Part shown: positions 4,651 through 47,553 of the stretch, one piece after another
Numbering within the stretch: position 1 is the first letter of the stretch
Layout: every line of letters starts with the position of its first letter
Virus record (IMG/VR): IMGVR_UViG_3300009111_000004
From: an uncultured virus (IMG/VR IMGVR_UViG_3300009111_000004)
Lineage: Duplodnaviria > Heunggongvirae > Uroviricota > Caudoviricetes
Length of the DNA stretch: 64,000 nucleotides
Strand: one strand, 5' to 3'
The notes under the pieces: generated by a model
Told to the model about the DNA's origin: nothing
Database searches by the model: none
What the model saw: the letters and a program-made list of their open reading frames with translations, nothing else
Made by a program: the position numbers and the translations under genes

Positions 4651-4722
4651 AATAATTTGATAGTATTGCTATCTTAATGATTTATGTTATTATTGTGATT
4701 ATTTTAGTCTGGAGAAATCCAT

Positions 4723-5219: not shown

Positions 5220-5223
5220 GTTT

Positions 5224-8832: not shown

Positions 8833-8845
8833 TTTTGAGGGCACA

Positions 8846-11311: not shown

Positions 11312-11335
11312 ATCTAATAATGGAATTGTTAATTT

Positions 11336-13431: not shown

Positions 13432-13452
13432 AATATTCATTAGGATACTTTA

Positions 13453-15240
13453 ATGGCAAATTTAAGTAATTATTTCTCTCGACCTGAACGTCTTCAACGT
13501 CGTTCCATGCGTTTAAGTCAATTTAAGAAAGTTGCTAATGGTTTCTCATCTAGACCGACTAACCGTCTCACTACTCAAAATATTGGATCTCGTGCATTAA
13601 CTCTAGTGCATGATATTCTAGGTAATTATATTCTACCTTCGCGACCAAAATTATCTTACTCTATGGTTAGAGATGCTAGAGTAGCCAGTGGTAATAATCT
13701 TGAGGAGGGCGTAATCACGATTCACGCTGATTTTCATACTAGGACCGGTGTACAAGTTGGGATTGACATACCTATTGAGGTTAGACAGGGACAACTTTCA
13801 GAACCGTCAGTGGTCATACACGATGGAATTCCGCGGGTTATTGCACAATCTACGTTTGATGGCCTAACGACAGCCAATACATTCTATGAGACTTTACAAC
13901 AACGAGAGATGTACGCCGCGCCATTCTCTCCGCAGATTCAAAAGAACATGCAAGAACGTCATATTAGGATGGAACGAGTTAATCAAGGTATGTTCTCACT
14001 TAAGGCTAATCAAGATACTTTGAGGGCTATTGTTCAAGGCAAATCTACCGCCGGGCAAGTATTAAGATGGCCAACAGATTCGAATTGTCGACAAGCTTCA
14101 CCTGAAGACTATGATGCTGATGATCGTTATAAGAAACCAGATCCTGATCGCAACATTCAAGAGGGCGATGAATTAGATCCGGCCGAGCGGGACAATCGAG
14201 ACATTGAAGTGGGGGAAGATTACTCACTCACTGAAGCTATGGAAGTTAAGGAGAGAGGCGGGGTAGCCTATGACCTATCTAAAGGTGTCAAATGTACTGT
14301 CTTACGGGATCATGCTGGAGATAATAAATCATTTGTAGTAGAATTTGAAGACGGATTGCAGGCGATTGTAGAACGACGCTTCTTAAAGCAATCAGCTAAA
14401 AATATCGCACCTAAAAAGTTACCCAAGGACAAATTGGATATACCCAAGTTAAAGGGCCAACCAAAACCATGTAAGAAATGTCAAACTGGTACCTGTGAAC
14501 GCCATCGTAAGAAGGCTCAGTCATTTGGTGTTTGTCTTAATTGCGGATGGAATGCCACCGATAAAACATGGGTAGATATGGTATATAATTGTCCAGATTG
14601 TGGCAATGAACTCCAGACTAATCTTAATGTGCATACAAGCGCATCAAATTTTTTAGATAAAGTTAGCCAAGAGGTAGATAAATTATATAATCAAGGGTTT
14701 ACAGACATTGACGTGAAACTTGCGGTTCGTAGTAAATATGGAGATGAAGCAGTAACCGCACTATTTAATAAAACTGCGCAGGCCAATAGTATCCAGATTT
14801 ATACTGGATGGGCGCTAGATCCTACTACCTATGAAGATTATAATTTTATTGGTAGACCTGTACGTAATATTAAACCACTAACTGATGAGCAGGAAGGATT
14901 CTCATTTGAATTATATATTCATGAGTCTAAACAATGGGTAACAGTCACATCACCTGAAGAACCTGAATTTGTTGGTGTAGTCGATGACTTAGATGACCAT
15001 CCTACTGAGCAGCTCTATACGCATTCTGATGATTTACTATCTCAACCAACTGATTCACCGAATGATAATCTAGATAATTTACGTGTAATAGATCAAGCAT
15101 TTAGTGATGCTCAAGATATTAATGAGATAAAGCAAATTCATAGAGATTTTAATACCCCAAAGAAGATGCGTCCTTCTGACGAAGGTAAATTCCAATATCC
15201 AGTAGTGCCATCTAGGAAGTTATCAACTAGTCATGTGTAG
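13453..15240 (+). CDS. Modular hypothetical head-region protein (SH3-like and Zn-ribbon modules)
   Basis: 595 aa; CKKC, CLNC and CPDC motifs; KKAQ and KTAQ junctions. Confidence 0.75.
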   Translation: MANLSNYFSRPERLQRRSMRLSQFKKVANGFSSRPTNRLTTQNIGSRALTLVHDILGNYILPSRPKLSYSMVRDARVASGNNLEEGVITIHADFHTRTGVQVGIDIPIEVRQGQLSEPSVVIHDGIPRVIAQSTFDGLTTANTFYETLQQREMYAAPFSPQIQKNMQERHIRMERVNQGMFSLKANQDTLRAIVQGKSTAGQVLRWPTDSNCRQASPEDYDADDRYKKPDPDRNIQEGDELDPAERDNRDIEVGEDYSLTEAMEVKERGGVAYDLSKGVKCTVLRDHAGDNKSFVVEFEDGLQAIVERRFLKQSAKNIAPKKLPKDKLDIPKLKGQPKPCKKCQTGTCERHRKKAQSFGVCLNCGWNATDKTWVDMVYNCPDCGNELQTNLNVHTSASNFLDKVSQEVDKLYNQGFTDIDVKLAVRSKYGDEAVTALFNKTAQANSIQIYTGWALDPTTYEDYNFIGRPVRNIKPLTDEQEGFSFELYIHESKQWVTVTSPEEPEFVGVVDDLDDHPTEQLYTHSDDLLSQPTDSPNDNLDNLRVIDQAFSDAQDINEIKQIHRDFNTPKKMRPSDEGKFQYPVVPSRKLSTSHV

Positions 15241-15260
15241 TATCTGGCTAGTGTTATATT

Positions 15261-17273
15261 ATGGCTACTGATTTAAATACTTTCTTGAGTGGATTACAAC
15301 AGAGTTTAGTCCAAACTGCTCAAACTCAAGCTATATTAATCCCTCAGAAGGATAGCCAGTTAGATTATTTTTGTACACCAGCACCCAATGCAATTGAATG
15401 GGCGATCAGCCCTGAGTATGCCGATGTCCCAACAATCTATCATCATCGACGTCAATATCAAATAATTAGAGATTTTTTCCAACTACGCTGTCCTTTACCA
15501 ACATGTAATAATCAAAGTGAAGAGTCAAAGGATTGTTGGAATAAGGAACGAGAATACCTAGAGAGTGAGAATCTATTAGTATGGTCATCTAAATATGAGG
15601 AAGATGTGTGTCCTCATTGTAATACTACTCGTTCAGAATTTCTTCAAGATGGATTATTGAAAATTTATAATCAAATGAATGTAGTGGCTGGAATGCGAAG
15701 CGGCAAGACCGCAACAGCTGGGATTATTGGTACCTATATTGAGCATCGGGTAATAACTATTGGTCATAAAATACCTGGAGGACTATCACAATATTTTAAT
15801 AATCAATTACCAAAACAACCATTTGAAATTACTTTCATTGCGTCTACTGATGTACAATCAGCAGACACCATCTGGGCTAGGTTTACTAGTCTGCGCCAAC
15901 AAAGTCAATGGATTCAGAAATATATTCGTTGGATTAAGGCTGAGGAGCTAAAGCAATCAACTCCTGATGGTGCCAAACCATGGACCTATGTTGAGCAAGA
16001 CAAACAAATCGTCCATGGATTTCTACATCTTAAATTAAATAGTCTAAATTCTAACTCTGGTGGTATGGCAGGACGTACACGTCCAGCAGCTTTCGTAGAT
16101 GAATTAGCTAGATTCGATAATACTGAGTCAAAGCGATCTGGAGATGAAGCATACCGAGTATTAGAGAACTCATTGCGTACCATCCGTACTCCTTCAATGA
16201 AGAATAAAGCAACACCTTGGCTAGGTACAATGGTTTCAATTTCATCTCCAATTTCAGAAGACGATAAATCTATGCGTCTATTACGACAAGCCAATGAAAT
16301 TAAAGGAATGTACTCAGGCCACTGGGCCACATGGGAATTTAATCCTGACCAACCTAAAGAGGCATTCGATGATGATTTCGCTAAGGATCCTATTGGAGCT
16401 ATGCGAGACTTCGGAGCTAGACCTCCTACAGCAATTAGTCCACTCATTGTTGATCCTATGCGATTTCGAGAATTAGCTATTCAGAAGGATTTGTCGCCCA
16501 CTACTCGCTTTAAACACATTGTTCACACCGATCCAACTGGGCGAGAATATGTTAGTGCGATTATAGAGAGCGCACAGTTATTACGAAATGGTGAACGTTA
16601 TATATGTTATGATGCAGGAGCTAGTTTTGATCAATTCGCTGGTGCTTGTGCTCATGGTGAATGGATACATACTCCAGAAGGTCGTCAATTAATCACAGTC
16701 TTTGATTGGGTATTTAGACTAATCCCTGAGCGCCAACCTAAACGAGATGTGTGGTTCGATTTCGTGGTTAGTGCTGTCGAGCAATTAAGTAAATATTATT
16801 ATATTGGACGGGTTGAATTCGATCGCTGGCAATCTACCTATTTAATTCAACAAATCCGTAATCGTGGCATACTCTGTGAAATGAAGTCTACAACTGCCGA
16901 TCAATTTATTAAACTTATAAATGATGTTACTTATGGTAAAGTACGAATGTTGCCACCAGATCCAGACGATCATAAACTAGATCCACCATTTATGAGTGCA
17001 CCCGGACTAGCTTTCTACGAGCTAGAACATCTAGAACGATCGTCCGATCTTAAAAAAATATATAATCCTAAGAAAGGTCAAAGAAGAGGTTGGGATTCAG
17101 ATGACGTTGCTACTGTAGTCGCTCATGTAAATAATATGTGTCAGTCTGCAGTTATTGATGTTGGTAATTCAAATAGTGTTCAATCACGTCTACGTCGAGA
17201 GGCTGTAGGTTCATATGGGTGGGAGTCTGGTGGAACATTATTTAGACCAAGCATTAGCAAACGGAATTGGTAA
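15261..17273 (+). CDS. terL: Terminase large subunit
   Basis: Walker A GMRSGKT, Walker B AAFVDE, ISSP coupling motif, nuclease acidic residues (YICYDAG, FDRWQS, DDVA). Confidence 0.9.
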   Translation: MATDLNTFLSGLQQSLVQTAQTQAILIPQKDSQLDYFCTPAPNAIEWAISPEYADVPTIYHHRRQYQIIRDFFQLRCPLPTCNNQSEESKDCWNKEREYLESENLLVWSSKYEEDVCPHCNTTRSEFLQDGLLKIYNQMNVVAGMRSGKTATAGIIGTYIEHRVITIGHKIPGGLSQYFNNQLPKQPFEITFIASTDVQSADTIWARFTSLRQQSQWIQKYIRWIKAEELKQSTPDGAKPWTYVEQDKQIVHGFLHLKLNSLNSNSGGMAGRTRPAAFVDELARFDNTESKRSGDEAYRVLENSLRTIRTPSMKNKATPWLGTMVSISSPISEDDKSMRLLRQANEIKGMYSGHWATWEFNPDQPKEAFDDDFAKDPIGAMRDFGARPPTAISPLIVDPMRFRELAIQKDLSPTTRFKHIVHTDPTGREYVSAIIESAQLLRNGERYICYDAGASFDQFAGACAHGEWIHTPEGRQLITVFDWVFRLIPERQPKRDVWFDFVVSAVEQLSKYYYIGRVEFDRWQSTYLIQQIRNRGILCEMKSTTADQFIKLINDVTYGKVRMLPPDPDDHKLDPPFMSAPGLAFYELEHLERSSDLKKIYNPKKGQRRGWDSDDVATVVAHVNNMCQSAVIDVGNSNSVQSRLRREAVGSYGWESGGTLFRPSISKRNW

Positions 17274-19435
17274 TGACTAGGCTTCACCGATTATATCGTC
17301 GTCATTTTCAAGCTGCTGTAAATGTAATTGATGAACCTGAAAATAGACAACCCAGTGGTAAGGATGAATTAAGTTACCCAGCAAAATATCCTCAGAGTGA
17401 AGAACCAGATAATCAAAACTCATTCCCTGAGTTAGATTTCGGTCATACCCGACGAATAGAAGGGGCTGAGCATACTAGTGCTATTATTGCACTTAAGCCT
17501 TCACTAGATGCCGCTACTCAACTACAAAATGCTTATCCTGATATAGATATTGATCCAGACGAATTACATGTGACAATCATCTATTTAGGTAAGGGACTAA
17601 ATAGTGAAGATATCGATCATTTATGTGAATTAATAAGTCCTATCTGTGATGCCCACCAGCCATTAGAATGTCATACTCAAGGATTAGGTATTTTCGACCA
17701 TGTTGATGATGATGGTCGCCCTTTTTATGCAAGTGTAGACGCACCTGGGTTAGCTGCTCTATATGTTGACTTAAAACGTATTCTAACTGATGCGGGCATC
17801 GATCTTCCATCGGATCATGATTTTACGCCACATATGACTATAGGGTATGTAGACCCAGGGGATATCTCAATAATTGACGGATCACCATGTATTCATTGGA
17901 TTTCTGATGAAATTATAATTATGTCTGGTGATGAACACATCACGATGAAATTGGGAGGACTTCCTAAGGAAGCATCTGGATTTGGATATTCTTTAAATGA
18001 GATTATTACTCCTAGTAAAGGCCAAGGATTCACTGATAACCCAGCTGATAATCATCAGACTGAAAATATTAGTGAAGATCCTGATTTAAAATTAGGAGAA
18101 GTTGAAGAACCATATTCTTCTGATCAGGGCCCTATAAATTTTCGATTCGAGAACGATCCAGAAGATAATATTGTTAAGGGAGCATCAATTTATCGAAAAC
18201 TGATAGCCTCAGTGGGTAATATCCAACGATTATTGGGGTATGATAAGGAAACAGCTAATTATATTCATGAGCGATTCCCACATAATGATTTTGCGGCGGC
18301 AAAAATTATCGATTTGTTAGGACAGCACCATGAGAAAGATGTTTGGCATCACGTCGATCCAGATCCATCAATATCATCTATATATAATCCATGGATTGGT
18401 GGTATATCAGCTATTAAAGCTTATATTGATGAGAATCCACATGCAATATTGGTTGATCTAATGAATCCTAATATACCATCAAACAAAGTTAAATTTATTA
18501 ATAATTTTAATGGAGGTTGGGAACAATTAGAATATCAATATTACGATAAGTTTACGACTCTAGATCAATCTGAAGTGATATTACAATTCCAAGATGGATT
18601 TAAGTGGGTTAAAGTACCTTCTTGTGATTATAGTTCGATGGCCAGTGTGATGCAACATTGTACCGAATTTGCTGGTGATATTTATTCATTACGCGATTCA
18701 CAGAATAAACCACATGTAACTGCAGATGTAAGTGGTGGAAGTTTAATACAAATTCAAGGTAAACAAAATACTTTACCAGATCAAAAATACTGGCCTTATA
18801 TTAAGGAATTAGTCAATAAATTAGATATTGGATTTAGCGCATTTATATACTCAGAGATACAAAAATTAGTACCTGGACGGTCTTCACCCCATAGTGTGAA
18901 GGAAGAATTTATTCGCGGTAATTATCAACCTTTATTAGATGCATCTAATGGTGTTAAAGACGCTATCATTAATGATCCAGCCGGCGTTAGTTACGATGTT
19001 CTTATGGCTCTAGTAAGAGATCCATCGGCACATATTAGAGAGGAAGTGGCTCTTAAAGCCCATGATGAGATAGCGACCTTACTATTAAATGATCCAGCTG
19101 CTGATGTTCGTATGGCATTGAGTAGCAATCCGACACTATCATCTAGTATAATTGATATTTTGGCTAAAGATTCCAACTATAATGTGCGCGCGCGGGCTAC
19201 TATACATCCTAATATATCACAAAATGTACTTCAACAACTATCAAAAGATCAAAATAAGACGGTAGCTGAATCGGCAATTGAACGATTAAATCAATTAAAT
19301 CCACAAGATAAACAATCTGTTGCCATTCCTGATTCTGGTAGTATTGATCAGAATAGTTATACTGATGGAGATAATACTCGCCAAGACCGCAGTATTCCTC
19401 GTTCACCCAACAAAGAAACACTAATGTACACGTGA
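17267..19435 (+). CDS. Multidomain protein: 2H phosphoesterase (Acb1/2'-5' RNA ligase-like), PcfJ-like domain and HEAT-like repeats
   Basis: Paired HxT motifs LHVTIIY and PHMTIGY; MQHC...IYSLRD...PHVT...IQIQGKQN; DPxxxVR repeats. Confidence 0.75.
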   Translation: MVMTRLHRLYRRHFQAAVNVIDEPENRQPSGKDELSYPAKYPQSEEPDNQNSFPELDFGHTRRIEGAEHTSAIIALKPSLDAATQLQNAYPDIDIDPDELHVTIIYLGKGLNSEDIDHLCELISPICDAHQPLECHTQGLGIFDHVDDDGRPFYASVDAPGLAALYVDLKRILTDAGIDLPSDHDFTPHMTIGYVDPGDISIIDGSPCIHWISDEIIIMSGDEHITMKLGGLPKEASGFGYSLNEIITPSKGQGFTDNPADNHQTENISEDPDLKLGEVEEPYSSDQGPINFRFENDPEDNIVKGASIYRKLIASVGNIQRLLGYDKETANYIHERFPHNDFAAAKIIDLLGQHHEKDVWHHVDPDPSISSIYNPWIGGISAIKAYIDENPHAILVDLMNPNIPSNKVKFINNFNGGWEQLEYQYYDKFTTLDQSEVILQFQDGFKWVKVPSCDYSSMASVMQHCTEFAGDIYSLRDSQNKPHVTADVSGGSLIQIQGKQNTLPDQKYWPYIKELVNKLDIGFSAFIYSEIQKLVPGRSSPHSVKEEFIRGNYQPLLDASNGVKDAIINDPAGVSYDVLMALVRDPSAHIREEVALKAHDEIATLLLNDPAADVRMALSSNPTLSSSIIDILAKDSNYNVRARATIHPNISQNVLQQLSKDQNKTVAESAIERLNQLNPQDKQSVAIPDSGSIDQNSYTDGDNTRQDRSIPRSPNKETLMYT

Positions 19436-19472
19436 TAGACTCTAGTGTGCTCTCTGAATTGACTATTCGACC

Positions 19473-21818
19473 ATGATTGAGGTTTATAATAGGTACGCCA
19501 ATGTGCGTAAAGAAGTAAGTCTAGCACCGGCTGCACATGGACTAGCTGGTCATGAGATTGAGCGACTTCACTCTAGAATGAGTGAATTTGCGCCTCAACT
19601 AGCTCAAATTGGACCGGCTAATCGTTTCCGTACTCTTTTTGATGAATCATTACCAGAAGGTGCATCTTGGACACCGACACGTTTAGCTCAATCATTCGGT
19701 ATGGGGGGTAATCCTGGTGGTGGACGTACGATGGTGACCCAACAAACGCCCTATCAACCAGAATTTGCTAGTCCTGACCGACAACAATATCCAGTTCACC
19801 GTATTTTAGCCAATCGTTATTGGCGTCTGTTTTTTAAATTAGATCCAGTGGTCGGGAATTGTATTGAATTATATTCTGATCTTCCATGGTCTAATTTCGA
19901 ATTAACTGGGGAGGGTGTTGAAGGTGATGTTAGGAACGCTTATGAGGATATGTGTCGTGAGAGTCAAGTACTCGCGATGCTTCCTTATTTCGTCCGCGAA
20001 TTTCTAGTAGTAGGTGAGTGCATACCGCATACCTTCTTTGATAATGAGCGCGGTATTTTTACATATATCGCAATGCATAATCCGGATCAATTAGAAGTGA
20101 TCGACGCGCCGTTCATTAAGATGGATCCAATACTTGAGTTTATCCCAGATGATCGGCTTCGCGCTGTACTTTCTGCTCATCAACCTTCACTACAAAAGAT
20201 TAGAGATCGGATTCCACCGGAGTTACTAAGTAGATTACAGAGTCGACAGAACATTCCTCTATCGCCGATTAACGCAACGTTTATTCCCCGTAAGTTGCAT
20301 CCGTATGATACCAGAGGAACTTCGATTCTTAGCCGTCTATGGCGAGTATTAATGTTAGAAGATGCTATTTTTAATGCGACAATTCAGACCGCTCGGCGTC
20401 ATGCGGCTCCTATTAAAGTTGCAAAATTAGGTAATGCTGCAACTGGGTGGATCCCTCCTCCCGAACAGGAAAAGCGTTTACTAGAACTACTTGCTCAGGC
20501 AGAACAAGATCCTAATGCTTGGTTAGTATATCACTATGGGATTCAGTTCGATACTGTCGGTACAACAGATCGCATTATGTCAGTTAACCGAGAGTGGGAC
20601 ATCATAGAGCGTATTAAATTAGTAGCACTCGGTATTAGTAAGTCCTTCCTACACGGTGAAGTAAGTTATGCATCTAGTGCCACTGGACTTCAGGTCTTCT
20701 TACAGAGGCTGAAGTCCATGCGCATGTTTTTTGAGCAAAAATGGCTCTATCCTAAGTTTTTTAGACCAATTGCTCAAATTAATGGATGGATTAAACCTAA
20801 GCCAAGTGAACTTGCTCATCGTTTCCGAATTAAACGTTCACAACGTGAATTACAAGAGGAAAATCGCTATATTGTACCTAGGATTGTCTGGGACAAAAGT
20901 CTTGATCCACAGATTAATACTTCATTAATTCAAGCCATGCAGGCGTTAGAAGCTTTAGGAGTGAAATTTTCTAAGACCTCTAAAATGGCCACTGTTGGAT
21001 ATTCTTATGAGGAAGAAAGTAAGAAGATTCATCGGGAGATAGAATTCGAAAAGACTTTCCTACCGAAGCCTCCTGAAGATATTCAAGAAGGTGAGGCACC
21101 CGGAGGTGCCCCAATGGTTGGCGGTGAACCACCTCTGCCTCCAGGCGGAGGACCAGATACTGCTCCTCAAGGTGGACCTGGCGGTGAGCCCCTTCCTCCA
21201 ACCGGTAGTCCGAGTAAGGCTCCTCCCGGAGCTGGTGGGAAAATTACTCCAGGTATTAATCCTCCCCCAGCGGCCTCTAAAATAGAGGCCGACAATGACC
21301 CTACTAAACAATCAACAACTAACTCATCTCAACCATCGTTAAAATCAAAGATTTGGACCGATGATAAATATGGTAATTGGACAGCAACTGAAGTAAATAA
21401 TCTTATTGATCTTATTAATACATGTGATACTGAAGATGCATTTTGGGCAAAATTAGGAACTGAACGTGAATTTAAACAAGCGGTGTTGTCTAATGATCGT
21501 GCGGCGGTGTGGTCATCAATCGATCGTTATTTAGAAGATGAAGGTTATCCAGATTCTGACATTAAGGAACTTCAGACAATTTTAGAAGCAGAAGGTATTA
21601 TTATTCCATCTGAGTCACTACAGACATTAGAGCGTATTGAGAACTCACTTTCTGATAATATTGAACAGTCAACAGATGATGAATTTATTGCAAAGGTTCA
21701 ACAGGCCATAGTTGCCCGAGGTCCTCTTGTTCCTATAAACGATACATTTCTTTCTGGTATAGAATCTACTACCCCCAGGAGCCATTTAGATGGTAATTTG
21801 ACTCCACACGAGTCATAA
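19473..21818 (+). CDS. Portal protein
   Basis: Lies between TerL and the protease; DPVVGNCIELYS, RGTSILSR and ALGISKSFLHGEVSYAS portal-like segments; Pro/Gly-rich C-terminal extension. Confidence 0.85.
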   Translation: MIEVYNRYANVRKEVSLAPAAHGLAGHEIERLHSRMSEFAPQLAQIGPANRFRTLFDESLPEGASWTPTRLAQSFGMGGNPGGGRTMVTQQTPYQPEFASPDRQQYPVHRILANRYWRLFFKLDPVVGNCIELYSDLPWSNFELTGEGVEGDVRNAYEDMCRESQVLAMLPYFVREFLVVGECIPHTFFDNERGIFTYIAMHNPDQLEVIDAPFIKMDPILEFIPDDRLRAVLSAHQPSLQKIRDRIPPELLSRLQSRQNIPLSPINATFIPRKLHPYDTRGTSILSRLWRVLMLEDAIFNATIQTARRHAAPIKVAKLGNAATGWIPPPEQEKRLLELLAQAEQDPNAWLVYHYGIQFDTVGTTDRIMSVNREWDIIERIKLVALGISKSFLHGEVSYASSATGLQVFLQRLKSMRMFFEQKWLYPKFFRPIAQINGWIKPKPSELAHRFRIKRSQRELQEENRYIVPRIVWDKSLDPQINTSLIQAMQALEALGVKFSKTSKMATVGYSYEEESKKIHREIEFEKTFLPKPPEDIQEGEAPGGAPMVGGEPPLPPGGGPDTAPQGGPGGEPLPPTGSPSKAPPGAGGKITPGINPPPAASKIEADNDPTKQSTTNSSQPSLKSKIWTDDKYGNWTATEVNNLIDLINTCDTEDAFWAKLGTEREFKQAVLSNDRAAVWSSIDRYLEDEGYPDSDIKELQTILEAEGIIIPSESLQTLERIENSLSDNIEQSTDDEFIAKVQQAIVARGPLVPINDTFLSGIESTTPRSHLDGNLTPHES

Positions 21819-22023: not shown

Positions 22024-25000
22024 ATGTTTATTAAGAACGCTCGGGTACCTATTATTGCATTAGCTGAGGGGAGATTTAGCCCTAGTACCGATGGTTTATT
22101 ATTTAAGCGTCGTGCATCAGTTAAAACTGCTTCGTTTTACCAGGAGAATGCACAGCAATTAGACATTAAAACAGCGCTGGCCCTAACTGCTAGTGAGTAT
22201 GATATATCTAATGATCCAAAAGATTATATCTTTGAGGCTGTACGAGCAGTGACAGCTGAGATCCCAAACGAAAATGGAGATGGATTTCCTCGCAATGAAC
22301 TTCTACGATTTGACCATCGGTTAGGTAAAGCTGTATACCAGACTTTTATCGGAAAACCTCACCAGATTAATCATAGGGCTGACAATCCGAAGACTGCTCG
22401 TGGGGTAGTGCTCGATGCATCCTATAATGATTTATCACCTGCTATGGAGAATTGTCCTGCTTGCAATAATCGAACAGCTTCTCCAGAGGGTAGAGATTCG
22501 ATTGGTATTAACTGCATTAAATGTGGTACTACTGTAAAGGATGAGTTTGTAGAATTACTTTTAGCTATAGATACTCGTAAAGATCCAACATTTGCGGATG
22601 GTGTACGCACTGGAGCCCTTGATTCTCTGAGTATGGGTTGTGAAGCAGGATACACAGATTGTTCAATTTGTGATAATCGTGCTCGATCTGCAGCTCAATT
22701 TTGTGAACATATTCGTGGGGGCAACAAGAAGAAGAGCTTTAAGACCGCTTCTGGTCAGGAACGTATGGCTTTTGAGAAGTGTGGTGATGTAGTTTTTACT
22801 GAGATTTCTCGGGTTGACCAGCCCGCAGATCCCAAGGCCAAACAGCAAGAAGTACTAAAGATAGCTGGTCTACCATTAGCGGTTGAATCTGAAATGTTAA
22901 TTATGAACGCCCGCCTAGCTAAGTTAGAACAAATGAGTAAGATCGCACAGGTGGCTAAAGGTTATTATTATGGTCCAGCGGAAGAATTATATTGGAATGA
23001 TGGTAAAGATAATTGGTCAGAGTGGAGTGATCAGTCAAATAGTTGGTCACCAATAGATTTAGATGAGTCTGACACCGACTTATTTCCGGTTGGTAATGCT
23101 GGCGGTTTGCCTCGACCGCCGAGTTCACCTCCATTTATTGGACAAGCCCAAGCTCAACCAGGTGATCCTGAAGTAGTCCCACAGGTGCCATTTAAGAACA
23201 TTGCAGAATCTATTCGTTGGGCGGAATCTTCTATCCATAAATTAAAGGCTGAGATGCGTCGTCTTGCTTCTGAAAAGAACAATAAGCAACGTGAAGCTGC
23301 AGGATCTAGTCGTCCATTTTATGCTTGGGAGAGCGCCACCTATGATGCTCAAATTAAGGCAAATCGACAATTTGTCTCTCGTCTAGAGGATTATGTAACT
23401 AAAGCGCGTGAGATGCAGGCTGCTGGAACCCCCTGGGAGAAGGGATTGACTCGTCAAATGTCTCGATTTTTCGCTAGTAAAGAGGGTCAGGCTATTGATG
23501 AAGTTAGACAACAGACTGATCAGTTGGAGCAGTTGAAGGTGATGCATCCTGAAATGACTCAGCAGATTGATCAACTTTCTGGACAGAGTGATGTTCCTGA
23601 GCCTATGTCCATTGATGATTATACTAAGAAGCATGAAGAATCCTTTGATCAAAACATGACGCTAGGTGAGATGGGCATGAAACCAGATGATCAGTCTGGG
23701 TTAGCGTTACCGGTTAATGTCAGCGCCGGGAAGGCCATTGATGAGAAGATTGCGGCTGACTTTGACGCTTTAATAGATACTGTGAAGGAGAATAATGTGG
23801 GAGCAACCCAGGATTTTGCTGATTCTTATAAGCATCTAGAAGCAACAGTTACAGGTACTGGTAATGTGAAGGTGCACACTGCTGCCGGGACATTATTCGT
23901 AGTACGACCTACTAATCGCCCAACAACTAAGGAAGCGGCGGCGGAGGTTGCCCGCGAGGTATTAGCTAGTATTGCTTCTGATGGATTAGTAGGCGCTGTT
24001 GCTAAGTATGATGCGATCGTTGGCCCTAAGGCTGCACAGGTCTTAGAACATCATTTAGAAGATTTCGCTGGTGGTCGAGAAAAGGGTGATACTAAAGGTA
24101 TGCCAGAAGGTGGATTAGTTGACCATCAAGATGATCGTTCTAAACCAGAGAAGTCGATGGTTGGTGAGGAATACACCGATCGTAAGGATGAGACACGGGA
24201 ACATCGGGATCAGTCTAATTCTGATGTACTAGAGAAGCACCAGCCTGATCATAAGGAATCGCTACCAAGCGGTTTGATTCCTATGACTGAGAAGGAGTAT
24301 TCAGATATGGCTGACGGGCACGGTAGGCCGTCCAAGACTACTTTAAAGCATACCATGGTTGATTTTAAAGATAAGCAACCAAAGAGCGCTCGTGCACCTA
24401 TTAGTCGCTTAGCTCAGTCAACTAGTCCAACTTTACTATCATTTAAGGCAAATGATCAATTTGCTATTTATGAGTTTAGTGATGGTACTAAGTTATTTGA
24501 AGATAGTGTTGGTGGTGGTGCGGTATTAGTTAAGTCAGACGGTACTCGTGAAGAATTATATGGTGTAACCGATAGCCTATATGATACTGTGATAGTAAAT
24601 ACTAAAATTCAAAAACAGCCAATAACACCAGCGGATGAGCAAGAATTAGATACGGTATTTGGGTTTGATGATAAGCAACCAAAGGGGGCAAGTAAGAGAG
24701 CTCAGGCGTTGCAGGTTGTAGACTTCTCGGTGAATGATGACTACGATAGTGTGGTAACATTCAGTGATGGTACAACCTGCAAGGGTAATGAAGAAGGTGG
24801 TCGTTGGATGGAATTTGATGGCCCACTTGGTCATCAGGAGTATAATGCTAGAACTGGTACAACCTTAGATGGTAAACCTGGGCAATACAATCAACATTAC
24901 AAAATGATTATGAAGTCATATGAAACACATGGTGGTCCTGGTTACTTACCTGGAATTAAGCAACCAAAGGGCGCAAATAAGAGAGCACAGGTAGCTAATG

Positions 25001-26133
25001 GCGGTAAATATTTAATTGATTCTGATGGTGAAGTATATATAATTAGTAACGGTAAATATTGGATCTGGGATGAGGCACATGTCAGTTGGATGGGTCCATA
25101 TCTGGATGATCATAGTAAGGATTGGGAGTCAATGCAAAGTACGGACCAGTTCCCTGAAGATCCAGTCGATATTGATCATCGACGGTCAGGTCCGCCGTCA
25201 GATCCAGATGGATTTAGTAATAAGATCTCAATGGATGTATGCGCTAATGAAATGTGTTCAATGCACTCTAGCAAGAAGGGAGCTGGCGATGACTGTAGCT
25301 GTGCTCCTAATTGTGGTTGTCAGTGTGGTTGTAAGTGTGCGGGTTCCCATAAGGCTCAAGGGGTACCCAACGCTCCAGCAGTTCCAGGTCAGCAGCCTTC
25401 CATCCAGCAGCCTTCCATCCAGCAACCAGGTATGGTGGCCCCACTAACCCAGCCAATGGCCCCACTAACCCAGCCAATGGCACCAACGGCTAATAAACAG
25501 GCTAGATTAGACGATAGCGCTAAGAAGTATATGTCTAGAGTAGAGCGTTTATATAAAAATCGTTTGGCACAGTCTGAAGCAACTGCTAAGGATCAGTATG
25601 TGAAGGCGCGGTCAGTGGCCGTTAAGGATGTTACGGCACGTATTCTCCGTGCCCTACATTTAGTAGCGAAGCGCCAACAACTTAATTTAGAAGAGTCTGC
25701 CATTAAGAGCGCCATGTTTGATGTACTCACTAGGCAGGCAGATCTTGATGCTGACACCTTTTATCCTGGTATGGACGAGAGTACTGCTGCTCATATTGTT
25801 GAGGCTACTTCTAATGAAGGTCTAGGTAAGTTTGTTGATTCGTTACTAAAGCGTGCTTCTGAGTTTATGGATATGAATGAGGACGCACTTACTGCCTTAG
25901 AAAATGACATCAAGCATCTGCGCCCTATGGCGGTAAACGTGCAGGCCAGTGCTGTTCGGGTGGCCTCACGTCAAGATATCCGCAAGCAGGCGGCGAATGG
26001 TAATCTAGTAATCGCTCCTACTGCGACTGAGTCATCTATTTCTAGAAATGGAAGTAGAGATACCATTAGGTCAGCTTTAGGTTCTACAAAGGTATCTAGA
26101 ACTTCTAAATTTGTTAGTAGTAATAAGGGCTAA
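22024..26133 (+). CDS. Prohead (capsid maturation) protease fused to inserted modules and a C-terminal scaffold-like coiled coil
   Basis: NENGDGF, YQTFIGKP..NH, SMGC, CSICDN...CEH and FTEISRVDQPADPKA are typical of large-myovirus maturation proteases; upstream of capsid genes. Confidence 0.85.
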   Translation: MFIKNARVPIIALAEGRFSPSTDGLLFKRRASVKTASFYQENAQQLDIKTALALTASEYDISNDPKDYIFEAVRAVTAEIPNENGDGFPRNELLRFDHRLGKAVYQTFIGKPHQINHRADNPKTARGVVLDASYNDLSPAMENCPACNNRTASPEGRDSIGINCIKCGTTVKDEFVELLLAIDTRKDPTFADGVRTGALDSLSMGCEAGYTDCSICDNRARSAAQFCEHIRGGNKKKSFKTASGQERMAFEKCGDVVFTEISRVDQPADPKAKQQEVLKIAGLPLAVESEMLIMNARLAKLEQMSKIAQVAKGYYYGPAEELYWNDGKDNWSEWSDQSNSWSPIDLDESDTDLFPVGNAGGLPRPPSSPPFIGQAQAQPGDPEVVPQVPFKNIAESIRWAESSIHKLKAEMRRLASEKNNKQREAAGSSRPFYAWESATYDAQIKANRQFVSRLEDYVTKAREMQAAGTPWEKGLTRQMSRFFASKEGQAIDEVRQQTDQLEQLKVMHPEMTQQIDQLSGQSDVPEPMSIDDYTKKHEESFDQNMTLGEMGMKPDDQSGLALPVNVSAGKAIDEKIAADFDALIDTVKENNVGATQDFADSYKHLEATVTGTGNVKVHTAAGTLFVVRPTNRPTTKEAAAEVAREVLASIASDGLVGAVAKYDAIVGPKAAQVLEHHLEDFAGGREKGDTKGMPEGGLVDHQDDRSKPEKSMVGEEYTDRKDETREHRDQSNSDVLEKHQPDHKESLPSGLIPMTEKEYSDMADGHGRPSKTTLKHTMVDFKDKQPKSARAPISRLAQSTSPTLLSFKANDQFAIYEFSDGTKLFEDSVGGGAVLVKSDGTREELYGVTDSLYDTVIVNTKIQKQPITPADEQELDTVFGFDDKQPKGASKRAQALQVVDFSVNDDYDSVVTFSDGTTCKGNEEGGRWMEFDGPLGHQEYNARTGTTLDGKPGQYNQHYKMIMKSYETHGGPGYLPGIKQPKGANKRAQVANGGKYLIDSDGEVYIISNGKYWIWDEAHVSWMGPYLDDHSKDWESMQSTDQFPEDPVDIDHRRSGPPSDPDGFSNKISMDVCANEMCSMHSSKKGAGDDCSCAPNCGCQCGCKCAGSHKAQGVPNAPAVPGQQPSIQQPSIQQPGMVAPLTQPMAPLTQPMAPTANKQARLDDSAKKYMSRVERLYKNRLAQSEATAKDQYVKARSVAVKDVTARILRALHLVAKRQQLNLEESAIKSAMFDVLTRQADLDADTFYPGMDESTAAHIVEATSNEGLGKFVDSLLKRASEFMDMNEDALTALENDIKHLRPMAVNVQASAVRVASRQDIRKQAANGNLVIAPTATESSISRNGSRDTIRSALGSTKVSRTSKFVSSNKG

Positions 26134-41454: not shown

Positions 41455-43644
41455 ATGGCTACCGAGACAGAACAAGTCACGCAAGAGATCAAAGAGGCTC
41501 TAGAAGGGTTTAAAGCAATTGGTCAATATGCCAAAGATCTAGCTTCAGCAATTGCTTCCGCTGATCAGCCGCTGCAGCGTGCTAACGATATGACCAAAGC
41601 CATCGAAGTACAGATGGAAACCATTGCTGAGAATTCGCGTGGAATGGTTGAATCTGTCAAGAAGATGACCGATAGTGTCGGTGCTACCATATCTAAAATG
41701 CGGGAACTAAATCAAGTTCAATCTGAGGCTAAAACACGACTTACTGAGGCTAGAGAGGAGTTAGTTCGTCAACAGGTTGAAACTGAGACTCTTAGAACTA
41801 AGAAAGCACAGACTCAATTAGAAGAACGCGAAGCCTGGACCAGATTACGTAATGAGCAATCCAAATCTCATGAAGCCGCAGAATCCACGCGCGGTATATG
41901 GTCCCGCACAATTGATTCTGTAAAGGAATTACAAGTTGAGATTGCGAAGGCGGGTTATGAAACTGATAAGTTTGGTGTAACTAGTAAAAAGGCTGGTTTG
42001 AAGGCTGGAATGGCTCGGTTTACTGCTGGAGCAATGAGCTCAGCTGCTGAATTGTTCACTGGTCAAGCCGATCCAGCAGGAGCCGTGCGATCTATCGGTG
42101 CAGCAGTAGCTAGTCTTGGCCAGACTGCCGGTATTGGTGGTTTAGTCGGTATGATGATTTATGGTAAGATTAAGGATGCTGAGTTTCGGGCCGTAGGTGA
42201 GACTGCAGGTCAGATGTTCGACCAGATTAGTGGTCATACTTCTGGATTTGCAGCTAGAATGGGCGGTGTTGCCCGCTCTTTATCAGTATATGCTATGGCT
42301 GCTAAGGAGGACCTAGCCCAGGTTGCTGCCGCATTCGCTGCTACTGGTGTTAATGCAGCAACTGCTCAGATTAAGATTGATGGATTTGTATCATCAGTAG
42401 GTAATGATCTTATTATTGCGACTTTAGCAGCAGATAAAGCCCTAGAATTACCAGCAGGAACATTCGCTAAGTTAAGTGGGACTATTGCTCGGGATTTTAA
42501 TACCTCAGCTGACAAGGCATTCATTAATTTAATGAATTTAGCAACTGCCGCTAAAGAGGCTGGTATGAATGCTGCTACCTTCCTACAACAAACTATGGAG
42601 GTCTCATCTAGTTTAAGATTGATGAATGCTAATGCCGGAGCTGCTGGGGCTACAATGCTTGGGTTATCTAAGACCATGCAGGGGCGGGGCATGGGGGCCG
42701 CCTATGCTCAAGCTTATACTGGGGCTGGTATGGGATCTGTTGCTTCTGCTACCGCAGGATTAGGTGAAGGATTATCAGCGATTATTGGTGAGAGATTAGG
42801 ATATAGTTCAGGACTAGAGGCTCTTTATGCGATGAAGACCGGATCTGGACAATCAGCTCGAGGATCTCAACAATTAGATTTAGCTGCGGTAATGAAAGAG
42901 ATGCGGAACATCGTCACTGGTGATATGGCTCTGACGAATCGATCAGAGCAGGCTTTTGCGCTTCAGAAGCTTTTCGGAGTGGATGTGACTGGTGCTGATG
43001 CTATTATTGATGCGATGGAAGAAGCGAATAAAACGGGAAAACTCAGTGCAAAATCCCAGGATGAATTAAATCGAGCTTTTCAGAGTGAATCAGCGAAGAC
43101 CAATCAGATTATGAAGTTGATTGATGTCATTAAAGATGCAATTTCAAACGTAATGGTTGGTTTACTTGGAATGATAGTTAGTGGGCTAAAGATGTTACTC
43201 AATGGTGTAATGTATCTCACTTCACAGTTAATGACTAGTACACTGCTTAACACAGATGCTAGGTCGAGAGAGGAGTGGAGTGAGGCCGCAAGGCGATATA
43301 ATGCTAATATTGAATCAGGAGTGCTTATCAGTGGTAAGGCTACCGATCGTATTCTTAAAGGGCTAAATCAAGGAAGTGGTGCGATGGGTGGGTTGATTCG
43401 TGAATTTGATTTAGCTGGGGGTTGGCCCTGGTCTAAGGGTCGATATCCGTCGTCTACTGGAGATTCAGGTAGTGGACAAGGAGAATTGGGTGATCCAACG
43501 GTTTATCCAGCGGCCCATATTACTAAGACAAGATATAGTAAGAACGTGCCTCAGGTAGGACGTGTTGAGGTAGAGACTAAATCAAGTGTACATGTGGTCC
43601 GGCCGGACCGTGGCACTAAGAGATACGATAGCGGGGCTTACTAA
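41455..43644 (+). CDS. Tape measure protein
   Basis: 729 aa, Ala/Gly-rich and helical, directly after the chaperone pair. Confidence 0.85.
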   Translation: MATETEQVTQEIKEALEGFKAIGQYAKDLASAIASADQPLQRANDMTKAIEVQMETIAENSRGMVESVKKMTDSVGATISKMRELNQVQSEAKTRLTEAREELVRQQVETETLRTKKAQTQLEEREAWTRLRNEQSKSHEAAESTRGIWSRTIDSVKELQVEIAKAGYETDKFGVTSKKAGLKAGMARFTAGAMSSAAELFTGQADPAGAVRSIGAAVASLGQTAGIGGLVGMMIYGKIKDAEFRAVGETAGQMFDQISGHTSGFAARMGGVARSLSVYAMAAKEDLAQVAAAFAATGVNAATAQIKIDGFVSSVGNDLIIATLAADKALELPAGTFAKLSGTIARDFNTSADKAFINLMNLATAAKEAGMNAATFLQQTMEVSSSLRLMNANAGAAGATMLGLSKTMQGRGMGAAYAQAYTGAGMGSVASATAGLGEGLSAIIGERLGYSSGLEALYAMKTGSGQSARGSQQLDLAAVMKEMRNIVTGDMALTNRSEQAFALQKLFGVDVTGADAIIDAMEEANKTGKLSAKSQDELNRAFQSESAKTNQIMKLIDVIKDAISNVMVGLLGMIVSGLKMLLNGVMYLTSQLMTSTLLNTDARSREEWSEAARRYNANIESGVLISGKATDRILKGLNQGSGAMGGLIREFDLAGGWPWSKGRYPSSTGDSGSGQGELGDPTVYPAAHITKTRYSKNVPQVGRVEVETKSSVHVVRPDRGTKRYDSGAY

Positions 43645-44507
43645 TGGCAATTCTCGATGGGCCAGGATTGTTCCGTAATACAATTATTCCTACAATAGGG
43701 GGCACTGGTGCGGTTCGGCGAATTCCTTTTACTTTTACTTCTACAGCTCGTCTCTTACGGTCTGGGAAGTTAAAAGCATTAGGTAACGATTTTGCTAGGT
43801 TACAATCTGCTCAGGATCGGCGTAATGAGTTAGCTAGTATTGAACTAGCTACGCGCGGAATTAATGCTGCTAATCAGTTAGGATTATCTGATACAATAAG
43901 TTCAATTAAGAATGCATTACAACTATCGATTGGATTAGGCATGCCTATTATTGAGATGGCAGTTAATCCTCATGCTATCAAGTGGAGTCAAAATAAACGT
44001 ATAACTAAACGTGATACGATGAATGGATCTGTGTTCTTTCATTTTACTAACGATGACGATCAAAATAATGATATTCTAAGTGTGTCGTTTACTGGTCGGA
44101 CTGGAAATATTAATACCCAAGGTAATATTATTGATGCATTTACTACTGGTTCTAGTTTGAAATTACGGATTTGGCATGAACTTTATAATTTAACTCGAGA
44201 GCCAATGTTATTGAGTCAGAAGAATGCCGAGCAAGGATTACCAAGGGGGTTAAAGAACGAATTCTTCATTACCTATCGTAGCATATTAATGCCAGTGCAG
44301 ATTACTCTTATTGGTCATTTTAGTAAGGTATTAGAATTTACTGAGACTGCAGATGACCCATATAATCGAGAATATAATTTTACTTTTACGGTTACTAACA
44401 CTAGTCCACGATTAGATGATTTGTCTGCATTAATGAATTCTGCTCTTTCAATCTCAGGGCAGACTGAATCATTAGTTAGCAATATTACTTCATTGGGTGT
44501 GCCATAG
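43644..44507 (+). CDS. Baseplate / tail tube initiator protein
   Basis: MAVNPHAIKWS...KRDT..G and FTETADDPYNREYNFTF motifs; follows the TMP. Confidence 0.65.
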   Translation: MAILDGPGLFRNTIIPTIGGTGAVRRIPFTFTSTARLLRSGKLKALGNDFARLQSAQDRRNELASIELATRGINAANQLGLSDTISSIKNALQLSIGLGMPIIEMAVNPHAIKWSQNKRITKRDTMNGSVFFHFTNDDDQNNDILSVSFTGRTGNINTQGNIIDAFTTGSSLKLRIWHELYNLTREPMLLSQKNAEQGLPRGLKNEFFITYRSILMPVQITLIGHFSKVLEFTETADDPYNREYNFTFTVTNTSPRLDDLSALMNSALSISGQTESLVSNITSLGVP

Positions 44508-44508
44508 T

Positions 44509-44961
44509 ATGAATAGGTGGGAGCGACGAATAGGTATGATTGGTCCGTTAGGGCAACGAATGGCGCAAACAGTAGATCCATCTTGGATTGATCCATATAT
44601 CTTAGATGTGATTAATCGGATCAATTCATTAGGATATATTCACACCACCCATTCTTGTGCTGGAATTGGTCCACGTGCATATATTGAAGGTGGTGGAGAT
44701 CATATATTAGATGAGATTGCTTCTGCCTATCTAGTATTCGAAGTAGATTTACCTAATATGGAGGCTGCTGAATTATTATCTAAACTAAGCACTATTTGTG
44801 TATATGGATTCGAGTCTCCGGAACAAATACTTAGTACTATGTATGAATGGCATGCAAATTCTAACAAATATAGGTATGTTTGGAGACCATTTAATTTAGA
44901 TCAAGATGTTACACGTCAAGAAGTAGAAATGGCATGGAATAAATTAAGACAGATTATTTAG
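44509..44961 (+). CDS. Leader-bearing putative capsid cargo with a Tyw3-like motif
   Basis: Leader MNRWERRIGMIGPLGQRMAQ, then IDPYILDVINRINSLGYIHTTHSCAG. Confidence 0.7.
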   Translation: MNRWERRIGMIGPLGQRMAQTVDPSWIDPYILDVINRINSLGYIHTTHSCAGIGPRAYIEGGGDHILDEIASAYLVFEVDLPNMEAAELLSKLSTICVYGFESPEQILSTMYEWHANSNKYRYVWRPFNLDQDVTRQEVEMAWNKLRQII

Positions 44962-44971
44962 GTTAATTTAG

Positions 44972-45271
44972 ATGGGGTACTATAGTATGAATAAATGGGA
45001 GTATCGAGTAGGTATGATTGGCCCATTAGGGCAACGAATGGCTCAGGTAGATGAATACCAGAAAATCATTGACTGGATGCGATCGATGGACCCCAATTGG
45101 GATCCAAATGATGATGAATCATATTTTAATCCAACTGGGTTAGAAGGACCTAGTGAAATTGTAGTTAATCCGGATGGGAGTTGGGAAGCAAGTAATGAAT
45201 CACGTGTTGATGAGTTTGAGTCTGGGATTGGACTAGCTGCACTTCAGGCATTATTTACATCAGTCCATTAA
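44972..45271 (+). CDS. Leader-bearing small acidic putative capsid cargo (start 44972 or 44987)
   Basis: Leader MNKWEYRVGMIGPLGQRMAQ, then a D/E-rich domain of about 74 aa. Confidence 0.7.
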   Translation: MGYYSMNKWEYRVGMIGPLGQRMAQVDEYQKIIDWMRSMDPNWDPNDDESYFNPTGLEGPSEIVVNPDGSWEASNESRVDEFESGIGLAALQALFTSVH

Positions 45272-45282: not shown

Positions 45283-47553
45283 ATGTCATGTCCTACTGTT
45301 AGATATGGATTTCCGAAGTTTAAGGTATTCATCTTTGGGGTAGATATTAGTAATGATGTTTTGAGTATTAATACTACTAGTCATGATGGAGCTGCGCCTA
45401 ATACCTGCCAAATTACTTTGGCCAATGAATTAGATAAATATATCTTAACGACTGAAGATGTGATAGCTTTGAATAAGCTTAAGTTTACCAATGATCAACT
45501 TGACATACCTTGGCTCAGGAATCAGGAGTTTACTACAGTCGATCCTATTGCTGAACGTGGTGGTTTGTTGTCTGTTGGTTCAGCGGCTTTTCAACAGGCC
45601 CTCAATACAGGATTTACAGGAGTTAAATATTCAGTATTGTTAAAGAAAAATCAAGTGGTGCAGAATGTTGATCGATCTAGTTTAGTAGATATTTTTGGTA
45701 GACAGATTCAAGGTACTCGTTTCGCTGATTATTACGGTGCGGTTATTAAGAAGTATCCACTTGCTGATGGTAGTCCAATCTTCCATCCAATGGATCCAGT
45801 GCGAGTATTTATGCGAGATCCATTCGATCCAGGACGGTGGTATTACCATTTTACAGGGTTCGTTTCAGATATGGTAGACAATGTTGATCAAAATAACGTT
45901 AAAACATTAACTATTGTTGCTGAAGACCCTACTAAACTATTTAGATATACTAGAATTTTTATTAATCCGGGTATCATTGATGCTAATGTGGTAATTGAGA
46001 AACAAGACATGCGAGTACAAAGTTTTTATTCGCATTTTATGAAAGGATTCAATTTACCCGAGGTTTTCTTTACATTAATTTTTGGCCCAGATCGGGTTAA
46101 GGCCGAAAAAATCCTAGAACGCCAGCATGGTAATTCAGGTAGCTCAAATCTTACTACTAGTATGCGTGGTATTGGGCATTTTGCCTTTGATACATCTGGA
46201 GTATTTACCTTTGGTCCATCATTAGATCAACCTATTAATCAATCGGCACAACAGCAACGCGAGCAGCCGGCCGCTAAATTATTGGATGTTAAACCAGAGA
46301 TTAATCTACCTTCTTTAAAGGTTTGGCAATCTATTGTTGATCACGAAGTTCAACCATCCGATTTATATACTATGGCTACACAAGAAACTAGGGAGGCTGA
46401 TTCAGGTGTACTGGTTGAAGCGGCTAACGCGACATTCAATGCTCTTGGCATTGAAGGTGTAGTTGATGAGATTGGGAGACACCCGGAAGTCTATTTGGTT
46501 GATGGTGGGCGATTGTTGATGCTTATTCCTAATAGTTTAGGTGTAGATAATAATAAAGTTATTATTAATGATATTATCCAAGCATACCCATTAAATAGTG
46601 AATGGAGTTCTGCCGGTTCAGTGATGTATGAAGTAATTGATAGAATTCAATTTATAATGTACTGTTCACCTCGGGGTGATATCATCATTGAGCCACCTCT
46701 ATATGACTTTGATCCAGATGATTTCGGTATGGAAAGTATTCCTTCTACCGAATTGGTTAATATTTTATCTACTGTGGGTATGACCAATACTCCGGATGTT
46801 GCAGGATCATTGGTATCTGTCTTGGGTAATGCTGAGAGTCAGATTCCTGGTACCCCACGTGGTCCTTACGGTCCGAATTATGTGTTGACCAGAGGTAATA
46901 CTTATCGTTGGGAGGCAGCATTTATTGATGAAAAGGTCTACAATGTAGCCACTGCGCCTCACTCTATTTTCCAGAATTATGAATCATTACCAAATACTTC
47001 TATCATTGGAGATCTGGCTGTAGTGAAAATCCCACACTTAATCCCTTTATATGGAGTACGTCAAATCCCATTAACACCTAGAGGATATATTGCCAGTTCG
47101 GATGGGGCATTGCTTTTCTGTCATATTGCTTTAAATAAGTTAAATGCCGATGCTCATACTTTTAAGGTCGATATGACCCCTAATATTAAAATGGGGGTAA
47201 ATCGACCAATATATATTCAAGGGCGAAATTGTATTTCAACCATTAAGCAAGTTACCCAATCTCTAACTTGGGGTGAACAAGGTGACATGGAAACATCTAT
47301 AGATGTATATGCTACACGCACTTGGGACGGGCATGTAGCAAGGAGCAATCTGAATCAACCAATATACTCACCTATTGGTAGTTTTGCGTCTCGCCCACTA
47401 GATTATAACATATTATTTGGTAACCAAGCTGTTCCTAATATTACTGATGAAGAGGCTGGTGCTAGATCATCGTTATCATCAGATGCGCTTGGTAAAATAT
47501 CTGCGGCAGTAAATCAAGCTGTTGGTGGCTTGAAGAACGGTGGAGTTAAGTAA
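45283..47553 (+). CDS. Baseplate hub-like protein
   Basis: 756 aa; synteny; HFTGFV..., YCSPRGDIIIEPPLYD. Confidence 0.65.
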   Translation: MSCPTVRYGFPKFKVFIFGVDISNDVLSINTTSHDGAAPNTCQITLANELDKYILTTEDVIALNKLKFTNDQLDIPWLRNQEFTTVDPIAERGGLLSVGSAAFQQALNTGFTGVKYSVLLKKNQVVQNVDRSSLVDIFGRQIQGTRFADYYGAVIKKYPLADGSPIFHPMDPVRVFMRDPFDPGRWYYHFTGFVSDMVDNVDQNNVKTLTIVAEDPTKLFRYTRIFINPGIIDANVVIEKQDMRVQSFYSHFMKGFNLPEVFFTLIFGPDRVKAEKILERQHGNSGSSNLTTSMRGIGHFAFDTSGVFTFGPSLDQPINQSAQQQREQPAAKLLDVKPEINLPSLKVWQSIVDHEVQPSDLYTMATQETREADSGVLVEAANATFNALGIEGVVDEIGRHPEVYLVDGGRLLMLIPNSLGVDNNKVIINDIIQAYPLNSEWSSAGSVMYEVIDRIQFIMYCSPRGDIIIEPPLYDFDPDDFGMESIPSTELVNILSTVGMTNTPDVAGSLVSVLGNAESQIPGTPRGPYGPNYVLTRGNTYRWEAAFIDEKVYNVATAPHSIFQNYESLPNTSIIGDLAVVKIPHLIPLYGVRQIPLTPRGYIASSDGALLFCHIALNKLNADAHTFKVDMTPNIKMGVNRPIYIQGRNCISTIKQVTQSLTWGEQGDMETSIDVYATRTWDGHVARSNLNQPIYSPIGSFASRPLDYNILFGNQAVPNITDEEAGARSSLSSDALGKISAAVNQAVGGLKNGGVK

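Follow-up and report, generated by a model that had tools for sequence, protein, structure and literature searches.

In bacteriophage T4, otherwise unrelated small internal proteins share a short N-terminal leader, the capsid-targeting sequence (CTS), which ends at a prohead protease site. According to the available text of two papers (PMC9026906, PMC3012670), the first 10 residues of IPIII are sufficient for encapsidation, distinct leader positions determine targeting and processing, and the CTS is regarded as an evolutionary device for loading diverse proteins. The ipII and ipIII genes, which served as our control, are adjacent. Identity of their DNA begins about 15 nt ahead of the ATG and extends over the ten leader codons, after which the sequences are unrelated.

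Two further systems are relevant. In SPN3US, a jumbo phage, the head proteins gp225 and gp45 carry N-terminal propeptides of 20 and 24 residues, which are removed by the prohead protease gp245, and several copies of the protease motif are present in many of its head and ejection proteins (available text of PMC10052503). In phage P1, the packaged anti-restriction (Dar) proteins are placed in the head and delivered alongside the DNA, as described in the accessible parts of PMC9024508 and PMC12810830.

Two Adjacent Genes with a Common Leader

The window, that is, the whole stretch of DNA analyzed, covers 64 kb of a jumbo phage genome of at least 174 kb. The two genes studied here, A and B, and the repeat that they share are as follows.

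44509..44961, forward strand: gene A, 150 aa, consisting of the leader and a 130-aa acidic payload (pI 4.69); begins MNRWERRIGMIGPLGQRMAQ
44987..45271, forward strand: gene B, 94 aa, consisting of the leader and a 74-aa very acidic payload (pI 4.05); begins MNKWEYRVGMIGPLGQRMAQ
44504..44568, forward strand: repeat copy 1, ATAGT (overlapping the TAG stop of the upstream gene) and codons 1-20 of A; found by alignment
44982..45046, forward strand: repeat copy 2, ATAGT and codons 1-20 of B; found by alignment and pattern scan
44557..44568, forward strand: R-M-A-Q codons of leader A, the proposed prohead protease site, where the homology of A and B ends exactly
45035..45046, forward strand: R-M-A-Q codons of leader B

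An earlier note on this DNA had described two adjacent ORFs with a common 20-aa leader ending in RMAQ, and both the ORFs and the leader were confirmed. The common block is 65 nt long (ATAGT and 20 codons), and 55 of its 65 bases are identical in the ungapped alignment of 44504-44568 with 44982-45046. The upstream ATAGT is identical at 5 of 5 positions. In contrast, only 17 of the 60 nucleotides past the AQ codons are identical, and the 30 nt upstream of the block agree at 15 positions. Thus, the DNA is conserved from the ATAGT onward and the similarity stops after AQ, as had been claimed. The payloads are unrelated, again as claimed (BLASTP of payload A against payload B, E = 0.36). A 32-nt degenerate pattern of the leader core matched twice in the window, in A and in B, and not at all in 100 shuffles. 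The shared leader is a real, non-random feature. The leaders are basic (pI 12.0 in A and 10.0 in B), whereas the payloads are acidic.

The anatomy of this locus resembles that of T4 ipII and ipIII. The genes are adjacent, the DNA is common from shortly before the ATG through the leader and then unrelated, and a short N-terminal leader is found on otherwise unrelated small proteins. The T4 leader ends at the prohead protease site, and the A/B leader ends at a putative one. However, there is no sequence similarity between the leaders. Local BLOSUM62 scores over the first 25 residues were 97 for A with B and 60 for ipII with ipIII, whereas the A/B leader scored 9-18 against the leaders of IPI, IPII and IPIII; with these scores, membership of the A/B leader in the T4 CTS sequence family was rejected. 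The systems also differ in leader length (20 or 11 residues in A/B, 10 in T4), in the site ([KR]xAQ as the putative site in A/B, E at the end of the T4 leaders) and in the payloads (acidic, pI 4.0-4.7, in A/B; basic, pI 8.9-9.5, in T4). Moreover, A and B lie in the tail operon of a jumbo phage unrelated to T4, and the role given to them here is a proposed one. To regard the leader as T4-CTS-like in anatomy, in an unrelated jumbo phage, seems a reasonable, unproven reading.

SPN3US is like the A/B phage in being a jumbo phage, in having a propeptide (a proposed one in A and B) of the same length on small proteins and in the repetition of the motif in its head proteins. The SPN3US sites were mapped by mass spectrometry, whereas those of A and B are deduced from the motif. 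The protease and the motif of SPN3US differ from those of the window phage, and the available text of PMC10052503 gives no sign that its short propeptides are shared between unrelated proteins. The P1 Dar proteins correspond to what is proposed here for A and B, as they too are accessory proteins that travel in the head and are delivered together with the DNA.

A Sec, Tat or lipoprotein signal peptide was also considered for the leader and rejected, since its longest apolar run is IGMIGPLG (8 residues, where a hydrophobic core would need 10-12 or more) and it contains no cysteine for a lipobox. As to Tat, RR occurs in copy A only and B has YR, by direct reading of the sequence.

Genes A and B and Their Payloads

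The in-frame codon usage, compared with that of the long genes of the phage, was 0.757 for A and 0.715 for B. The neighboring genes gave 0.66-0.71, and the out-of-frame values were 0.48-0.52. Since A and B resemble the long genes of the phage, both are considered to be real genes. A contig from a second sample (X2) is identical to the window across the 3′ end of A and the leader and payload of B. Therefore, the layout is not a one-off assembly artefact. The contigs matched to this stretch of the window showed no variants and no joints. In addition, a 155-base contig identical to a part of payload A (window 44664-44818) was found in a freshwater metagenome (run X4). The study of this run differs from that of the wetland runs, and the phage or the payload A gene may occur beyond one site.

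In the public annotation, A begins at the internal Met10 (P0001, 141 aa), whereas B begins at Met1 (P0003, 94 aa). The leader of A could therefore be 11 aa, MIGPLGQRMAQ, instead of 20. A G-rich tract lies 9 nt before Met1 in both copies, and GGGAG lies 12 nt before Met10. Met1 of A is one base past the stop of the upstream gene, and the frame is open in both copies. Judged by this spacing, the adjoining upstream stop in A and the open frame, Met1 is more likely the true start.

Payload A has two distant homologues, P0005 (150 aa, E = 5e-4) and P0006 (173 aa, E = 7e-4), which were obtained in a full HMMER search of 1.84 billion representatives. Neither has the leader, and the domain conserved in them begins to align at about residue 23 of A. 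Thus, the leader is an add-on to a domain that exists without it. Payload A also shows a weak TYW3/Taw3-like N-terminal motif (SCAG). It scored 17.9 bits against Pfam PF02676 (cut-off 27; 27 of 211 profile positions covered) and 18.5 bits against NCBIfam NF047731 (cut-off 200), and Atlas's own model of payload A matched TYW3 clusters with a TM of about 0.59. As both curated cut-offs were missed, membership in the TYW3/Taw3 methyltransferases was rejected. The AlphaFold models had a mean pLDDT of 44.8 for A (3-row alignment) and 48.8 for B (single sequence), and the leader was below 50 in both; neither model was reliable enough for use. On the structure side, a profile search of PDB sequences gave nothing below E = 0.79.

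For B, relatives were found in no search (word index, GenBank phages, Atlas). The word-index protein searches returned only A and B themselves, tblastn and blastn against GenBank phages gave nothing below E = 2 for either, and no PHROGs family was found for A or B. Both payloads are absent from two complete relatives, G2 (178 kb) and G3 (166 kb), and from the other related loci.

Genomic Context and Insertion

The capsid protein of the phage shares 70% identity with its counterpart in Virus Rctr197k; its relationship to PaBG, Lu11 and phage G is more distant (for the kinship of the PaBG group, see the available text of PMC7412058). Upstream of A and B lie genes for the terminase, the portal, a 1369-aa protease-scaffold protein and the capsid protein. 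Genes A and B themselves are situated between a tape-measure-like gene upstream and a hub-like gene downstream, and the downstream tail genes include a baseplate-J-like gene (49717-51126). The label "baseplate operon" used in the earlier note is thus right. The genes directly flanking A and B are as follows.

43644..44507, forward strand: conserved 287-aa tail gene upstream of A, which adjoins the hub-like gene directly in relatives
45283..47553, forward strand: conserved 756-aa hub-like tail gene downstream of B

We compared this region in 14 related records (13 IMG/VR loci and Rctr197k). In 12 of them, the homologues of the flanking tail genes abut or overlap, leaving no room for a gene between them. 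Of the other two, one locus is incomplete and one has a different large gene abutting. No small genes between the flanking tail genes were found in any of the 14 records. Since the flanking genes abut in 12 of the 14 relatives, A and B together form a lineage-specific insertion. Gene order thus marks A and B as accessory genes inserted into the tail operon in this lineage. No promoter-like or terminator-like signal above chance was found around A and B, which are therefore probably co-expressed with the late structural genes. A and B would then be made when heads assemble.

Selection on the Leader Peptide

The two leader peptides are identical at 16 of 20 residues and at 12 of 12 residues in the core, GMIGPLGQRMAQ. 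In the 12 codons of this core, A and B differ at 4 nucleotides, and all 4 differences are synonymous. Only 25 of the 108 possible single changes in the core are synonymous, and the chance of 4 out of 4 is about 0.003. This indicates that selection acts on the peptide itself, not on the DNA or RNA, and that the two copies have diverged and are not a fresh duplication. On the evidence of its codons, the leader peptide is under purifying selection. The first nine codons of the leader are looser, with 6 nucleotide changes and 3 amino-acid changes (R/K, R/Y and I/V).

These observations bear on the possibility that the repeat is a remnant of recombination or duplication, that is, a gene-start cassette of ribosome-binding site, start and first codons that would provide inserted genes with expression, with no role for the peptide and a coincidental RMAQ. 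Such a cassette would account for the inclusion of the 5 nt upstream of the ATG, for the G-rich tract at the same distance in both copies and for the weaker conservation of the first nine codons, and it suits the status of A and B as a lineage-specific insertion. It is contradicted by the silent changes in the core of the diverged copies. In addition, a [KR]xAQ site is rare by chance, 0.02-0.04 sites being expected per protein of the size of A or B. We therefore regard the cassette as an improbable explanation.

Search for the Leader Elsewhere

A strict 33-nt pattern of the leader matched in IMG/VR only the record of the phage itself. A 27-nt pattern, encoding GP[L/F]GQ[R/S]MAQ, gave 9 matches in metagenome contigs and 7 in prokaryote genomes. 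All 16 matches were rejected as leaders, as they were internal or in stop-laden frames and none followed M-I. Moreover, 15 of the 16 were in DNA of 53-77% G+C. The matches were accordingly taken as chance. These scans of the collections demanded the nine core residues GPLGQRMAQ (F for L and S for R being accepted), and diverged versions would be missed by them. When the leaders were compared by tblastn with the two complete relatives and ten further related loci, the best E value was 0.89; G2 and G3 have no such leader.

The earlier note had called the leader portable. Since it was found nowhere else, the word "portable" applies to two genes of one phage. These two copies come from the 64-kb window, the genome being 174 kb or more in size, and further genes with the leader may exist.

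The [KR]xAQ Motif in Head Proteins

The leader ends in RMAQ, an instance of [KR]xAQ. The occurrence of this motif was counted in the proteins of the window, with the expectation taken from shuffles of each protein. In the 14 proteins of the head module (2362-28251), 19 sites were found and 4.08 were expected (Poisson p = 7e-8), and the maximum in 300 shuffles was 10. The other 32 proteins of the window, with A and B left out, had 2 sites against 2.77 expected. Among the 53 AQ dipeptides of the head proteins, P4 is K in 14 and R in 5, whereas in the other proteins [KR]x precedes AQ in only 2 of 36 cases. By these counts, made without A and B, [KR]xAQ appears to be specific to the head module in the window. 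The genes concerned are as follows.

2362..21818, forward strand: head-module genes with [KR]xAQ sites, by motif count
2362-3117: head-module protein with an identical QRMAQ at residue 124, its single site
5224-8832 and 13453-15240: head-module genes with 2 sites each
8846-11311: head-module gene with 6 sites, the first at residue 36
12322-13431: head-module protein with a DUF192 domain (Pfam E = 1.6e-23) and one site
19473-21818: portal, with one site at residue 70

The enrichment was also observed in the relatives, although it was weaker than in the window. The homologous regions of G2 contained 13 sites against 4.57 expected (p = 9e-4) and those of G3 contained 8 against 3.62 expected (p = 0.03). 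Outside the homologous regions, both genomes were at expectation. The G2 homologue of the DUF192 protein has four [KR]xAQ sites.

In the major capsid protein, canonical [KR]xAQ sites are absent and only LPKAQ occurs, near residues 41-45; the sites in its relatives are of the AQ or AE type and do not line up in position. The site in the portal is not conserved in Rctr197k. The N-termini of the other putative substrates showed no similarity to the leader.

The Protease-scaffold Protein

22024..26133, forward strand: 1369-aa prohead protease-scaffold fusion, the proposed processing enzyme (PHROG 18299, E = 1.3e-37)

The match to PHROG 18299, "head maturation protease", lies at the N-terminus of the 1369-aa protein. 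Searches of Pfam, NCBIfam and PDB sequences gave nothing beyond the PHROG name, and the word "protease" is absent from the available main text of the PaBG paper (PMC7412058). Of the six [KR]xAQ sites in the protein, two occupy positions that are also conserved among relatives, and two come from an internal repeat, by which the count is slightly inflated. All six protease-scaffold fusions that we compared carry [KR]xAQ sites. A GP[KR]xAQ site followed by V is kept in five of the six (window, Rctr197k, G2, G3 and G004), and in these five the protease domain is closely followed by a K-x-A-Q site. The protease domain of the window protein takes up about residues 1-320. A complex prediction for the protease domain with residues 1-40 of A gave a score of 0.02.

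The earlier note had proposed cleavage at K/R-x-A-Q. The enrichment of the motif in head proteins and its conservation in the protease-scaffold fusions speak for this model, while the capsid protein, which is without a canonical site, speaks against it.

Two repeats occur in the long part of the 1369-aa protein, the internal QPKGA[SN]KRAQ and the P/Q-rich PLTQPMA. The protease domain was seen to include an insert that is rich in Cys and zinc-ribbon-like (weak Pfam DZR match); this insert is absent from stand-alone homologues of roughly 305 aa. A leader-like segment, GMVAPLTQPMAP, is encoded at window 25429-25461, and 7 of its 12 residues are identical to the leader core. It scored 34 against the leader, with a shuffle maximum of 30, and it is not conserved in Rctr197k. 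For this reason, we treat it as a weak, unexplained resemblance, which might reflect mimicry of a scaffold segment by the leader, or chance.

The Leader as a Possible Docking Tag

The leader could also be a tag that is never cleaved and that attaches two small proteins to one partner, which could be part of the tail or baseplate or a host target that both proteins bind. The position of A and B between tail genes agrees with such a role, and selection on the peptide fits any binding function. Anchors of this kind occur in the group: two adjacent tail-fibre genes of G3 (G003:C1:95347-100595, loci L045/L046) have their first 38 residues in common, with 79% identity. The N-terminal anchors of tail-fibre and receptor-binding proteins are indeed like A and B in that a conserved N-terminus precedes divergent C-terminal parts in adjacent genes. 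However, those are large fibre proteins, whereas A and B are 94-150 aa long, acidic and absent from relatives, and their leader ends in a head-specific motif. As a structural anchor, a 12-residue core would be short, and among the tail proteins of the window none scored higher against the leader than the shuffle maximum. Furthermore, the 12 relatives in which the flanking genes abut build their tails without A or B. A docking tag also leaves unexplained why the homology ends exactly at a tetrapeptide class that is enriched only in the head module. Thus, docking is unlikely to be the function of the leader.

Proposed Mechanism

We propose that the leader is a capsid-targeting propeptide which is cut by the prohead protease, and we consider this reading about evenly balanced between right and wrong. 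The earlier note had read the leader as a targeting-plus-cleavage signal, and the in silico results favor this reading in three respects: the T4-like anatomy, the selection on the peptide and the enrichment of [KR]xAQ. The one argument that links the leader to the head is that the block of homology ends exactly at a motif which is specific to the head module and conserved in the protease-scaffold proteins.

According to this proposal, A and B would be accessory late genes between conserved tail genes of an Rctr197k-related jumbo phage. Each would be translated with a basic N-terminal propeptide of 20 residues (11 if translation starts at Met10), and the propeptide would carry the acidic payload into the assembling prohead. 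The protease, presumably the N-terminal domain of the 1369-aa protein, would cut after R-M-A-Q, with [KR]xAQ as its cleavage site. The freed payload might then stay in the head and enter the host with the DNA.

Several points stand against capsid targeting. A and B lie in the tail module, not in the head module, and their payloads are acidic, whereas the T4 internal proteins are basic. The capsid protein is without a canonical [KR]xAQ, the site in the portal is not conserved in Rctr197k and just two copies of the leader are known.

It is very unlikely that the leader is instead an inhibitory propeptide, cut by the prohead protease and without a targeting function, which keeps the payload inactive until it is in the head or until late infection while the payloads drive packaging: the motif evidence fits this as it fits capsid targeting, and payload A looks like an enzyme fold (weak TYW3-like motif, TM about 0.6), but two unrelated payloads would each need their own route into the head, and an identical 12-residue core on both is more simply explained as one shared recognition step.

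If the capsid-targeting reading is true, accessory proteins are taken into the head in the T4 manner in an unrelated, environmental lineage of jumbo phages as well, and a short leader serves there as both address and cleavage site, with a leader and a protease motif different from those of T4. A and B would be marked as injected effectors, and [KR]xAQ would be a sequence rule that predicts processed head proteins in this phage group. A second natural packaging tag would also be on offer. Since the phage is uncultivated and two copies of the leader are known, the practical value is limited for now, and the use of the leader for loading foreign proteins is speculation.

A broader picture can be put together from these parts, which we offer tentatively, as possible but somewhat short of probable. 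Uncultivated jumbo phages related to Rctr197k and PaBG would own a modular RMAQ address tag that loads arbitrary accessory proteins; a zinc-ribbon-bearing, [KR]-x-A-Q-specific protease-scaffold fusion would remove the tag; two acidic effectors would be co-injected; and the principle of the T4 CTS would have been invented independently. One of the effectors would have a TYW3-like enzyme fold and the other would be of no known family, and they are possibly directed against host defences.

Other Features of the Window

A fibre gene of the window (55327-58554) begins MSSRSLYPDG, similarly to the G3 fibres. Four small ORFs, located at the two ends of the window (1476-1994 and 60597-60969), have a common N-terminal motif, (I/P)GQ(V/I)W, and two of them begin MIK.GQ.W; the four have the appearance of a small family of paralogues. 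The region that separates the head module from the tail module (window 28586-30983) encodes a dCMP deaminase (28881-29315) as well as a holin-like protein (30618-30983). Finally, the gene at 17267-19435 encodes a 722-aa protein with a 2′-5′ RNA ligase/LigT phosphoesterase domain (Pfam E = 5e-12). It is located between the terminase and portal genes, which is an unusual spot for an RNA-repair-type enzyme.
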